Of a stretch of 64,000 bases of DNA, positions 12,522 through 26,397 are shown piece after piece. Below the pieces are notes generated by a model, which was not told where the DNA came from, searched no databases, and worked only from the letters and a program-made list of their open reading frames with translations. This DNA is from a virus, in IMG/VR virus record IMGVR_UViG_3300036860_000057, positions 1 to 64,000 of that record; one strand, 5' to 3'. A program made the translations under genes and the position numbers. Position 1 is the first letter of the stretch. Each line of letters begins with the position of its first letter.

Positions 12522-12585
12522 TTCTTCTGGAGAGGCTCGAACTCTCAACTGCCTTGCGGCATTTTGCCAATTAAACTACAGAAGA
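12522..12585 (-). ncRNA. Anticodon-less tRNA-like RNA (GCAA tetraloop replaces the anticodon loop)
   Basis: TCTTCTG TA GTTT AATTGGCA AAAT GCC GCAA GGC AGTT GAGAG TTCGAGC CTCTC CAGAAGA A. Confidence 0.8.
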
Positions 12586-23476: not shown

Positions 23477-23505
23477 ATTATATTCCTATTTTATAGTGTT
23501 GTCAA
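23477..23505 (-). promoter_or_regulatory. Sigma70 promoter
   Basis: TTGACA-17 bp-TATAAT. Confidence 0.85.
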
Positions 23506-23884
23506 CCAACTTCCCATCTCTGAACTCAACAATTTCTACATAATCAGCAGTTCCTACATCCCAGCGAGGATTGAAGTTAGGATCATTGAATGTATCAATA
23601 TAAAGACTCCAATCCTTACTATTTCCATATTGATTAGTGAGGTAATCATAGAAAAGAGATACAGGAGTCATAGTAACCAAACACGCCTCACATCCAAAGT
23701 CTGAAATTTCTCGTGCTCCATAGTGAATTAGATAAGCATGTTGGACGATACTTTCCTTGTCTTTATGAACCCAATGTCTGATGTATTCAGCTACATTTTT
23801 GGCATTAAATCCATTATCACCTGCAATAACCTTGCAGACTACTTCTCCATCTACTACTACTGAAACGAGTCCTTGTGTTGCCAT
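23486..23884 (-). CDS. Hypothetical protein
   Basis: AAGGA RBS, 132 aa. Confidence 0.7.
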   Translation of the reverse strand: MATQGLVSVVVDGEVVCKVIAGDNGFNAKNVAEYIRHWVHKDKESIVQHAYLIHYGAREISDFGCEACLVTMTPVSLFYDYLTNQYGNSKDWSLYIDTFNDPNFNPRWDVGTADYVEIVEFRDGKLVDNTIK

Positions 23885-23895
23885 TATTGATCCTT

Positions 23896-24003
23896 TCTAA
23901 ACATGCACGCCAATATTGAACTACTAAAATCATTAAAACATTCTCTGATTTTCCCAATCAAGTGATTTTACTGTTCCATACTATGATTTCTAATTACCAT
24001 ATT
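23896..24003. repeat. Degenerate ~100-bp intergenic repeat (other copies 24941-25021 partial, 27478-27600) carrying ATGCACG
   Basis: Shared ctaaacatgcacg...tattgaa...ttctctgatt...agtgattt...actatgatttc. Confidence 0.7.
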
Positions 24004-24007
24004 GATG

Positions 24008-24074
24008 TGGACCTGCTTGGAGTCGAACCAAGTTCTTGTCCCAACCTACGGGACAATCGATACCCATCAGGCCC
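24008..24074 (-). ncRNA. tmRNA tRNA-like-domain (TLD)-only RNA
   Basis: GGGCCTG ATGGGTATCGA TTGTCCC GTAGGTT GGGACAA GAA CTTGG TTCGACT CCAAG CAGGTCC A: G3-U70, A73, stemless D loop ending GA, GA after the helix, T arm. Confidence 0.8.
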
Positions 24075-24098
24075 ATTCTCATCTGCCCATATGATATT

Positions 24099-24299
24099 CT
24101 AGTTGTGTGCGTAGACGTAGGTTTCAGCAGAGTTACTAGCTCTGGCGAGTTCCCATGTCTTACTCTTCATCAGCAGCTTCTTCAGTCTGTCTGTCTTAGT
24201 TCCCAGAGGAAATTCCCGTAGGAATGGAAACTCTGTGAACCACATTTGACACACACCGGAACCATACAAGAACTGAATACGGAATAATTTTCTCATCAT
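24099..24299 (-). CDS. 66-aa hypothetical protein enclosed by a 13-bp inverted repeat
   Basis: CAGGAG RBS, MMRKLFRIQF...; flanking IR at 24077-24089 and 24314-24326. Confidence 0.65.
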   Translation of the reverse strand: MMRKLFRIQFLYGSGVCQMWFTEFPFLREFPLGTKTDRLKKLLMKSKTWELARASNSAETYVYAHN

Positions 24300-24329
24300 A
24301 TCTCCTGTGAGTGTGGGCAGATGAGATAA

Positions 24330-24387
24330 TGGTGCAGCAGAGACTCGAACTCTGTGTAGGCCCACCTACCACACCAGAATATGCACG
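24330..24387 (-). ncRNA. Degenerate anticodon-less tRNA-like element
   Basis: GTGCA/TGCAC acceptor core, GTAGG-TGGG-CCTAC short arm, CAGAG-TTCGAGT-CTCTG T arm. Confidence 0.6.
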
Positions 24388-24402: not shown

Positions 24403-24432
24403 ATTCTATAATCAGATCAGTGATTGTGTCAA
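24403..24432 (-). promoter_or_regulatory. Sigma70 promoter upstream of the tRNA-mimic cassette
   Basis: TTGACA-18 bp-TAGAAT. Confidence 0.7.
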
Positions 24433-24436
24433 GTGA

Positions 24437-24940
24437 TTAGTATTTGTTATGAAGGTGTTTCCAGACCTTTCCTAGTTTTATACGAGATATGGCAACTTCA
24501 CTTACATTGTATATCTTAGCTATTTTACTCTGCTTGATTTTATTGCTATTTAGTAATTTTATTATCTCTATTACTTGCTCTTCTGTTAATTTAGCACTAC
24601 CATGATTCTCTCCAATAGACTTAACAATCCTTCCTTTGGATTTACAGTCTTTCATATTGTCATCTTGTGTACCTAGTTTGAGGTGATTAGGATTAACACA
24701 AGAAGGATTATCACAGAGATGCATCACTAGTTTATTATCCGGTATGTCTCCATTTACTAACATCCACGACAATCTGTGTGCTCTGTATCTCTTGTGATCA
24801 ATAGCAATAATTCCATAATTATGATGATCTTTGTGCCCTAACCATTCCCAGCACTCACTATCTGATTTCTTGTTTATTTTGCTCCAAAAGTATTCAATTG
24901 GATTCATCTTTCCAAATTTGCTCATAATTTGTTCCTTCAT
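24437..24940 (-). CDS. HNH (HNH_3-type) homing endonuclease with C-terminal HTH
   Basis: CWEW, YG, AHRLSW, MHLCDNPSCVNPNHL, N..D; KLTEEQV...IAKIYNVS. Confidence 0.92.
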   Translation of the reverse strand: MKEQIMSKFGKMNPIEYFWSKINKKSDSECWEWLGHKDHHNYGIIAIDHKRYRAHRLSWMLVNGDIPDNKLVMHLCDNPSCVNPNHLKLGTQDDNMKDCKSKGRIVKSIGENHGSAKLTEEQVIEIIKLLNSNKIKQSKIAKIYNVSEVAISRIKLGKVWKHLHNKY

Positions 24941-25021
24941 TTACATGCACGTAGAAATATGCACGTCAGAATATGAGTATTGACTCAAGTGATTGATCTC
25001 TAGTGATCTTTTCTAGTGATT

Positions 25022-25204
25022 TTAGTCTCCCATACTATGGTTCGATAAGGACAGAGAAACGAAAAGTCCCCCAAAAAACACGCCAATAAGCATTGAAACA
25101 AACGTTTCGTCAATGGGCAATCCAGACCAATATCTTATTCCTGTTGATATAATCATCATCATGATAGTTATCAACGTTCCCCTACCAACCATTTTCCAGT
25201 TCAT
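25022..25204 (-). CDS. Small 2-TM membrane protein
   Basis: Two hydrophobic helices; GAGG RBS. Confidence 0.6.
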   Translation of the reverse strand: MNWKMVGRGTLITIMMMIISTGIRYWSGLPIDETFVSMLIGVFFGGLFVSLSLSNHSMGD

Positions 25205-25269: not shown

Positions 25270-26397
25270 CTATAACATAGTAGGCATAATAATGTGCCAT
25301 GCAGCATACTCAGGTGTAAACTTGATCATGTATCCTATATTAGAAACATTCTTGAAATCAGCACGAATAGAATACCCATCGAACTTAGCAAGAGTTTCCA
25401 CCAATTGGCTGATCTTGTAGCCTGACTTGATCGACTCACCAATCACATAAGCATCGACTACGCTGTCTGTAGTACCCAGATCGCGACTAGTAGCACTCAC
25501 CCGAATGATCTGCTTATCCTTGTCAGACTCAAGTGATGTGAACTCAGAAAATACTTCAGAACGTTTTAGGACAATAGACAGACCATCAGGATCAACTCTC
25601 AGTGTATGCAGATCATTGGCAAAGAATATATGAGTGTAGTCAGGAAATTGGCCCTCTGTAAGATGCACGGCGAATTCAGCGTTTCCAGACACAATAAACA
25701 ACATTCCAGCATTGAAAATCAAGTCAATATCTTCCTCATACTTAATCTCATCAGCAAACAGTGACTTGAATTTCTCAATGGCTGATAGAGGCACGAGTCC
25801 CGATACTTTCCCATCGAATGATGGACTCCCAAACTCATATTCTCTGTGAGCCATGCGCTTAGTATCTGATGTTGTAACCTTGAGGGTGTTGGTATCATAC
25901 TCGAACCAGACACCACTCAGGGCAGGCAGAACATCATCCTTAGAGGCAGCATACAACACCTCATTCAAGAGCTTCAACAGCACAGCAGCATTGATCATAA
26001 TGCTAGGACTATCCTCAGCCTCATTATCTCTAGGCCAAGGAATTAAAGGGAATTCCTCACCGTCGATTCCCTTGAATGATGCTTTAGTCGCTCCGCAAAC
26101 AATATTCAATTCCATCGTTCTCTGTACTATGTCTAGCTCGACTCGCTCAGGGGAGAGACGATCTACGAACTTAGCGAACCTGGTATAGGGAACACAGATT
26201 GATCCGTCCTGATCGACTACTGCCCCAACACCTACACGCATATCAGTATCCAGATCAGAAGTCTCAAGATAAACACGCCCTGCATGAGTAGAAATTCTCA
26301 CTGATTCTAGTACAGGCAGTGTTGATTTCTTAGAGACTGTCTTACCAACACGCCTCAGACCATTGGTTAGATTGTCTTGCAACATTGATACTTTCAT
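25270..26397 (-). CDS. dnaN: DNA polymerase III beta sliding clamp
   Basis: MKVSM...STLPVLE...SDLD, EEFPLIP, P.LSGV, SDTKRMA, EGQFPDY, IIMP C-terminus; 375 aa. Confidence 0.93.
   Translation of the reverse strand: MKVSMLQDNLTNGLRRVGKTVSKKSTLPVLESVRISTHAGRVYLETSDLDTDMRVGVGAVVDQDGSICVPYTRFAKFVDRLSPERVELDIVQRTMELNIVCGATKASFKGIDGEEFPLIPWPRDNEAEDSPSIMINAAVLLKLLNEVLYAASKDDVLPALSGVWFEYDTNTLKVTTSDTKRMAHREYEFGSPSFDGKVSGLVPLSAIEKFKSLFADEIKYEEDIDLIFNAGMLFIVSGNAEFAVHLTEGQFPDYTHIFFANDLHTLRVDPDGLSIVLKRSEVFSEFTSLESDKDKQIIRVSATSRDLGTTDSVVDAYVIGESIKSGYKISQLVETLAKFDGYSIRADFKNVSNIGYMIKFTPEYAAWHIIMPTML

Follow-up and report, generated by a model that had tools for sequence, protein, structure and literature searches.

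The window, the 64,000-nucleotide stretch of viral DNA analysed here (positions 1 to 64,000 of IMG/VR record IMGVR_UViG_3300036860_000057), belongs to a 78.6-kb phage contig from soil that is 99% complete and has a GC content of 40%. On its minus strand lies a compact RNA cassette that consists, in order, of a promoter, a 46-nt tRNA mimic, one arm of a 13-bp inverted repeat, a ribosome-binding site with a 66-aa open reading frame (ORF), the second arm of the repeat and a 67-nt RNA gene—here called the mini-tmRNA—that resembles the tRNA-like domain (TLD) of transfer-messenger RNA (tmRNA) (Table 1). The neighbouring genes are of the early type, and PHROG and Pfam assign them no function. No gene for a tyrosine integrase, SmpB or a CCA-adding enzyme was found in the phage genome; any SmpB partner of the RNA must therefore come from the host. 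The DnaN protein of the phage is closest, at approximately 33% identity, to proteins of Chloroflexota/Anaerolineae, a weak hint of the host, and its relatives P0002–P0005 show 45–75% identity. A DnaN-based search for further loci returned nothing in viral contigs and only a 28% relative in metagenome contigs, and blastn found no close relatives of the phage among cultured phages. The stretch is present in three soil DNA sequencing runs, with no RNA run among the matches listed. Contigs from two other studies carry an identical sequence with no variants, and one of these contigs ends inside the mini-tmRNA.

Table 1. Coordinates of the mini-tmRNA, its parts, the surrounding cassette and related viral loci
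Feature	Coordinates	Strand	Description or basis
DnaN sliding clamp gene	25270-26397	minus	mini-tmRNA lies 1.2 kb downstream of it
HNH homing-type endonuclease gene	24437..24940	minus	PHROG 1872/59; Pfam HNH_3; directly upstream of cassette
Putative sigma-70-like promoter	24403..24432	minus	TTGACA, 18 nt, TAGAAT; 11/12 consensus matches; consensus match only
46-nt minimal tRNA mimic, first cassette RNA	24330..24375	minus	acceptor and T-arm scan
13-bp perfect long-range stem (inverted repeat I2), 5′ arm	24314..24326	minus	100% complementary
66-aa ORF with AGGAG ribosome-binding site	24099..24299	minus	sequence; enclosed by 13-bp stem
13-bp stem, 3′ arm	24077..24089	minus	ends 2 nt before G1 of mini-tmRNA
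TLD-only mini-tmRNA gene	24008..24074	minus	67 nt; sequence, tmRNA as best Rfam family, R1 model, family covariation
Acceptor stem, 7 bp	24074-24068 with 24015-24009	minus	GGGCCUG and CAGGUCC, including G3·U70
D-loop, 9 nt, unpaired, stemless (GG..UCGA)	24067-24059	minus	AUGGGUAUC; RNA positions 8-16
Tandem G·A/A·G pairs	24058-24057 with 24035-24034	minus	G17·A41, A18·G40
Helix 2a, 7 bp	24056-24050 with 24042-24036	minus	UUGUCCC and GGGACAA; RNA positions 19-25 with 33-39
Helix 2a cap, 7-nt loop	24049-24043	minus	GUAGGUU; RNA positions 26-32
Linker, 1 nt	24033	minus	A42; sequence
T arm, 5 bp	24032-24016	minus	loop UUCGACU; RNA positions 43-59
Discriminator A	24008	minus	A67 in RNA numbering, A73 in tRNA numbering; sequence
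Protease/capsid setting, related viral locus L040	2405-3565
Protease/capsid setting, related viral locus L080	3119-4357
Protease/capsid setting, related viral locus L079	370-1716

The reverse complement of 24008–24074 divides exactly into the segments proposed by a first-pass annotation of this DNA, with the two strands of the acceptor stem at RNA positions 1–7 and 60–66. The alanine-type acceptor claimed there is present in the sequence as G3·U70 and A73, and so are the stemless D-loop ending in UCGA and the T arm. The proposed GA/GA elbow is seen as G17·A41 and A18·G40, as in the tmRNA consensus, with U19–A39 as the first pair of helix 2a above the tandem. Helix 2a likewise has the form described, a 7-bp helix with a 7-nt loop in an RNA of 67 nt in total, and an mRNA-like domain is absent. 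One detail required correction: a linker exists, but it is the single nucleotide A42 and not the 3-nt GAA that had been read, whereas G40 and A41 belong to the tandem as its 3′ half, an arrangement that agrees with the tmRNA consensus. The 67 nt contain neither a resume codon nor a tag frame, and no pseudoknot. The gene also encodes no CCA end, as read at 24008; the four ordinary tRNA genes of the phage likewise lack an encoded CCA, so that this is no obstacle to a functional RNA.

A feature-based pattern matched the window once and matched none of 100 dinucleotide shuffles, and the 67-mer folds with an energy of −30.8 kcal/mol (z = −3.5). Together with the independent covariance model described below, the shuffles and the folding confirm that the mini-tmRNA at 24074..24008 is a real gene, beyond chance. 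ARAGORN called four ordinary tRNAs in the window and missed it, giving no tRNA call at default or lowered bacterial thresholds and no tmRNA call at default settings. Two further ARAGORN candidates were taken as artefacts: a permuted tmRNA with the implausible tag ADEE (70% threshold), and an mtRNA-Ser in the region of the upstream mimic (metazoan-mitochondrial mode).

At gathering thresholds, Rfam reported three tRNAs only in the window, and the mini-tmRNA was not found in a 3-kb E-value scan. When the scan was narrowed to 96 nt around the mini-tmRNA, so that the filters relax, the best Rfam family was tmRNA (RF00023), at 20.7 bits where the gathering score is 47. The alignment spans model positions 1 to 374 with 310 internal positions deleted, and it matches the consensus in the acceptor stem, the D-loop (GA..GG..UCGA), the G·A and A·G pairs, the 1-nt linker, the T arm and A73. 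RF00023 outscored the tRNA-clan alternatives, which were suppressed. The mascRNA family (RF01684), whose gathering score is 42.5, reached 20.5 bits; the mt-tmRNA model (RF02544) had no reported match at the locus at E values up to 10, and any clan match lay below the tmRNA model; and the tRNA model (RF00005) had no match there in the gathering-threshold, 3-kb or genome searches. The mini-tmRNA lacks the mRNA-like domain and pseudoknots of a canonical tmRNA. It also lacks the D stem of an ordinary tRNA, with a 7-bp stem and the GA tandem instead of a 5-bp anticodon stem. The comparison of Rfam tmRNA, mt-tmRNA and tRNA models that the first-pass annotation had called for thus came out in favour of tmRNA, and a better fit to an ordinary tRNA model, which it had named as grounds for refutation, was seen neither with ARAGORN nor with RF00005. 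Judged by these model scores, the mini-tmRNA is more tmRNA-like than tRNA-like, yet it is far below the curated 47-bit cut-off.

A phage TLD-only tmRNA has been published. An entry 'Mycobacterium phage DS6A (TLD only)' is given by Hudson, Lau & Williams 2014 (PMC4131195) and repeated in the 2025 tmRNA database paper (PMC11915505), and the novelty implied by the first-pass annotation was to that extent overrated. We located the DS6A element at JN698994 28478–28560, directly upstream of the phage DnaN gene (gp34, L003 28680–29831). Against the Rfam tmRNA model it scores 34.7 to 43.2 bits and thus, like the window element, fails to reach the cut-off. An origin of the window element as a remnant of an attP or integration site was considered and rejected: the TLD is present in both its halves, no tyrosine integrase was found in the phage genome, and the integration site of DS6A is a tRNA-Lys (PMC10865867).

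Relatives were sought in IMG/VR with a pattern derived from the window element, which required GGG, GGNNUCGA, GGUUCRANUCC and UCCA at the right spacings. This pattern forced three of the seven acceptor pairs, including a fixed G3·U70 and A73, and conservation at the forced positions is circular. The scan returned at least 120 contigs; among the matches listed, 117 of 120 have a full 7-bp acceptor and one more has six of its seven pairs, with the remaining two being evident chance matches. The distinct sequences, at least 104, fall into two size classes: a short class of 62–70 nt with a simple hairpin, to which the window element belongs, and a long class of 74–86 nt whose inner hairpin is of the CCGCACGCGG type found in DS6A. 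The short-class hairpins have helices of 5–8 bp and are capped mostly by tetraloops, from which it follows that the 7-nt loop of the window element is not an anticodon loop. A search of viral contigs for an exact 22-mer of the mini-tmRNA gave no match, and a short-class member gave no blastn match among cultured phages.

Because the first pattern fixed G3·U70 and A73, a second IMG/VR scan was run that constrained only UCGAC, GGAC and the T arm and left the acceptor stem free. It yielded at least 68 new loci, and 53 of those listed carry a 7-bp acceptor at the expected place. G1–C72, G2–C71, G3·U70 and A73 are present in all 43 unique sequences listed from this acceptor-free scan. Combined, the two scans bring the number of viral contigs with the mini-tmRNA architecture to at least 171.

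A covariance model, R1, was built from 12 short-class viral members with the window left out. On the 64-kb window, R1 gave one full-length match, the mini-tmRNA (43.9 bits, E = 3.2e-7, model positions 1–63 of 63), and the next match was a partial one of 15.5 bits at tRNA-Arg. On the DS6A record, of which the first 50 kb out of 60.6 kb were searched, the sole match was the published TLD-only tmRNA (48.5 bits); as the DS6A element fits neither scan pattern, its link to R1 is independent of how the family was collected. Across 100 sources, window element and DS6A included, the R1 search gave exactly one match per source, at 33 to 84 bits. In the resulting alignment, which was fitted to the model and so favours structure, the margins are nonetheless very large: the acceptor stem is 99.9% paired, the T stem 100% and the four Watson–Crick helix 2a pairs at least 95%, with 12 pairs changed on both sides and a covariation score of 0.671 against at most 0.115 for slid-partner controls. 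Several features that the pattern had not forced are also kept. Opposite G17, all 100 sequences have an A; at the second tandem position, 80 of them have A·G, 17 have A·C and 3 have A·U; and the pair after the tandem covaries between C–G (79 of 100) and U–A (20 of 100), the window element having U–A. A single-nucleotide linker is seen in 99 of the 100. This covariation record is family-wide and derives from other viral contigs, not from close relatives of the window phage.

The search for phage homologues and covariation proposed by the first-pass annotation thus bore it out: G3·U70 and A73 are kept in 43 of 43 unforced sequences, the G·A elbow in 100 of 100, and the stems covary. Purifying selection acts on the TLD-specific features of the family. 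Sequence and architecture place the window element in the DS6A-type family: it is a gene for a TLD-only mini-tmRNA without a tag, and it belongs to a large group of phage RNAs of which the DS6A TLD-only tmRNA is the only representative described. ARAGORN misses 116 of 118 family members, and the class is common in phages, unannotated and below Rfam thresholds. In the literature that could be searched, no paper was found on the family beyond DS6A, its size or its invisibility to annotation.

The window and DS6A elements are both phage-encoded and share the 7-bp acceptor, G3·U70, A73, the stemless GG..UCGA D-loop, a G·A-closed helix 2a with a short hairpin cap, the 1-nt linker and the T arm; neither has a tag frame or pseudoknots, and both match R1 over its full length. 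They differ in length (67 nt in the window, 83 nt in DS6A), in the hairpin (a simple 7-bp hairpin compared with the inner CCGCACGCGG hairpin), in the tandem (G·A/A·G compared with G·A/A·C) and in Rfam tmRNA score (20.7 compared with 34.7 bits). The phages themselves are unrelated, one a 40% GC soil phage without an integrase and the other a temperate actinophage of 69% GC. In both, the phage's own DnaN gene lies within 1.2 kb of the RNA gene, possibly by coincidence. With bacterial tmRNA (SsrA, RF00023), the window element shares a TLD that aligns end to end with both model ends, but approximately 310 model positions, comprising the resume codon, the tag reading frame and PK1–PK4, are missing, as is an encoded CCA, and the score stays below the gathering score. 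CDS-less organellar tmRNAs—of jakobids and oomycetes (RF02544) and of Mallomonadaceae plastids—likewise consist of little beyond the TLD and are of similar size. CDS-less plastid tmRNAs of approximately 65 bp (Mallomonadaceae) and a CDS-less mitochondrial form are described in PMC11915505. By contrast with the window element, the organellar forms are AT-rich and coexist with a dedicated SmpB, and the window locus has no significant RF02544 match; the window element is probably a reduction independent of them. Plant mitochondrial t-elements and mascRNA (RF01684) also combine an acceptor with a T arm in a non-decoding RNA within an mRNA-bearing transcript, but three features that the mini-tmRNA family conserves are missing from them, namely the tmRNA-specific D-loop, the GA tandem and the alanine identity set.

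The contexts of family members vary, with DnaB-like or endonuclease VII genes adjoining some of them and a tRNA within 500 nt in 26 of 118 members. In 13–15 IMG/VR contigs, the mini-tmRNA lies in a late structural operon between the genes for a prohead protease (Peptidase_S78) and an HK97-type major capsid protein, on the same strand (Table 1). The cultured Streptomyces phage LuckySocke contains an unannotated 78-nt mini-tmRNA (OR725497 17977–18054; L125 2501–2578; R1, 42.4 bits), located inside a tRNA array a few genes ahead of an RNA ligase gene. Full-length blast matches were also obtained in GiJojo and pSt2308; the GiJojo annotation assigns the homologous stretch to a hypothetical protein. 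Partial blast matches in Salinibacter and Microbacterium phages (at most 15.6 bits) were unconvincing as members.

The family pattern also matches many contigs of bacterial and archaeal metagenome-assembled genomes (MAGs). MAGs of Eremiobacterota/Vulcanimicrobiota carry a distinct 72-nt class, sometimes with two copies per contig (L134, L142, L147, L152, L158, L174-L177, L193-L196 and others), which has the same GGGGCG.. acceptor stem, a UUCGAUGGUGUCGAC 5′ half, a T arm, a 7-nt loop on the inner stem and no 3′ G·A partner; this class may be a different kind of tRNA-like RNA. Nearly identical TLD-only elements of 82–83 nt occur in Candidatus Poribacteria MAGs, some of them on megabase contigs (L130, L131, L143, L189, L216, L218, L222, L224, L239), and may represent a chromosomal or prophage-borne mini-tmRNA conserved in one phylum.

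In the window phage, the mini-tmRNA is accompanied by other tRNA-like modules. The 46-nt mimic at the head of the cassette has a 7-bp acceptor that includes two G·U pairs, a single hairpin of 4 bp, a T arm of 5 bp closed by the loop UUCGAGU, and a discriminator A. Its best Rfam family is mascRNA (RF01684), at 26.1 bits and below the gathering score, and ARAGORN at default settings does not call it. The 5′ arm of the 13-bp stem begins 4 nt past this discriminator, after a 3-nt spacer, and the stem is kept in both the MFE and the centroid folds of the 401-nt transcript. Cleavage by RNase P and RNase Z would leave a 66-aa mRNA with paired ends; the ORF has no PHROG, Pfam or Atlas match. Promoter-like sites number 6 in the region against 4.6 expected, and no terminator-like site was found after the mini-tmRNA. 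A second anticodon-less mimic of 64 nt lies at 12522–12585 on the minus strand beside tRNA-Arg (acceptor UCUUCUG and CAGAAGA, T loop UUCGAGC), and the related viral locus L031 contains a similar 43-nt mimic (1356–1398) 26 nt from its mini-tmRNA. The HNH gene and the RNA cassette are flanked by a 31-nt direct repeat, 84% identical, at 23958–23988 and 25012–25042, the only two copies in the 78.6-kb genome, and the leaders of the HNH gene and of a 132-aa gene (23884..23486) are alike (repeat D3). These observations suggest that a module of approximately 1.05 kb, comprising the HNH gene and the cassette, was inserted or duplicated together with a copy of the promoter and leader.

G3·U70 and A73 make up the identity set of alanyl-tRNA synthetase (AlaRS), and SmpB binds the TLD elbow. 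Structures of SmpB on the elbow are cited in PMC11090510. As cited in PMC4131195 and PMC11915505, in what those papers say of it, an experiment on a similar, DS6A-like RNA gave inhibition of tmRNA and not rescue, with a construct that needed no charging. On the strength of the AlaRS identity set, SmpB binding at the elbow and this experiment, we favour, by a small measure over all else combined, a role for the mini-tmRNA as an AlaRS- and SmpB-binding decoy that would titrate SmpB and block trans-translation. The mini-tmRNA would be transcribed from the putative promoter as the last module of a cassette of approximately 400 nt, cut by RNase P at G1 (24074), trimmed at the 3′ end after A73 (24008) and given its CCA by the host enzyme. 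The mature RNA would be recognized by host AlaRS through G3·U70 and A73, and its D-loop/T-loop elbow and G·A-closed helix 2a would be bound by host SmpB. Having no resume codon, tag frame or pseudoknots, it would compete with host tmRNA for SmpB and, when charged, also for EF-Tu and stalled ribosomes, so that tagging by trans-translation would be shut off in infected cells. That the RNA is expressed, processed, charged and bound by SmpB, and that it acts on the host in this way, is what we infer from these features. The company of anticodon-less mimics and the adjoining stem-clamped ORF also fit a role in RNA processing.

The same features could be put to another use. Charged with alanine and assisted by host SmpB and EF-Tu, the mini-tmRNA might enter stalled ribosomes and accept the nascent chain, which would be released untagged by drop-off with Pth or ArfB-type factors, so that ribosomes are freed and phage proteins are spared proteolysis. 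To our knowledge, no mechanism of release after peptidyl transfer onto a tag-less RNA is known, which counts against such tag-free rescue. The full alanine identity set in all 43 of the unforced relatives listed speaks for it, as do the CDS-less tmRNAs of jakobid mitochondria and Mallomonadaceae plastids, which persist beside SmpB and are presumed to be of use where mRNAs are incomplete (PMC11915505); against it stands the only experiment on a similar RNA, which, as cited, gave inhibition. We regard tag-free rescue as unlikely but keep it as a rival of the decoy, because the charging determinants are strict in the family, whereas the inhibitory construct, as far as the citing papers describe it, could do without charging. 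A quite different reading makes the two tRNA-like modules processing signals ('tRNA punctuation'), with RNase P and RNase Z cuts at both freeing the clamped 66-aa mRNA and the likeness to tmRNA being one of ancestry. The perfect 13-bp repeat abuts both modules (at 4 nt and 2 nt) and is kept in the MFE and centroid folds, and the genome contains the further anticodon-less mimic at 12522–12585. With the mini-tmRNA 2 nt past the clamp, the structural prerequisites and the position of a t-element- or mascRNA-type signal are present. However, RNase P and RNase Z need no more than an acceptor stem and a T arm, which leaves the family-wide G3·U70, A73, GG..UCGA D-loop and G·A tandem unexplained, and relatives occur clamp-free in varied settings (between protease and capsid genes, in tRNA arrays, upstream of DnaN). 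As processing fits these conserved TLD-specific features and varied contexts poorly, we find it improbable as the sole function; as an added role beside a TLD function it is plausible, the two roles being compatible.

The RNA might instead bait or block the triggers of host defences that sense tmRNA-like or tRNA-like RNA, such as nucleases or sensors with SmpB-like domains, and not act on trans-translation. CoCoNuT systems of types II and III-A contain OB folds resembling that of SmpB, with tmRNA-like RNA as their predicted ligand (PMC11090510), fragments of t(m)RNA are put to use by an anti-CRISPR protein of a phage (PMC11662646), and the genes around the mini-tmRNA are early-type with no assigned function. 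The argument is purely circumstantial, no defence or anti-defence gene having been identified adjoining the mini-tmRNA, and we judge a role against such defences very improbable. Least probable by far, to the point of being scarcely credible, is a degenerate decoding tRNA without a D arm and with the anticodon AGG in its 7-nt loop, which does have a U at the second position. ARAGORN makes no tRNA call at any bacterial threshold, RF00005 falls below the tmRNA model and has no match in the 3-kb or genome searches, a D stem is absent, the helix has 7 bp closed by G·A and not 5 bp, and relatives cap the same helix with tetraloops.

The gain from the window phage alone is modest, as the kind of RNA was already published for DS6A. 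A phage TLD-only tmRNA is known; that the family is so large and escapes annotation is absent from the papers that could be searched. Trans-translation is the main bacterial ribosome-rescue system and a drug target. Only one phage, DS6A, is a known source of a natural RNA that inhibits this system, and the same RNA is now found in an unrelated soil phage. The class is large, with at least 171 viral contigs as well as cultured Streptomyces phages, and its alanine identity set is invariant among the sequences listed (43 of 43 unforced). With so many natural variants at hand, experiments can address directly why phages target ribosome rescue. As ARAGORN and the Rfam thresholds miss the class, phage annotation should include a covariance model made for it. 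For the locus as a whole, we put forward, tentatively and as doubtful, a self-contained cassette for RNA processing and against rescue, in which RNase P and RNase Z would cut free a stem-locked 66-aa mRNA and an alanine-charged, tag-less tmRNA that would block or re-route host rescue, the class being an overlooked takeover of translation quality control. If this holds true, phage mini-tmRNAs would be a widespread means of seizing host translation quality control.
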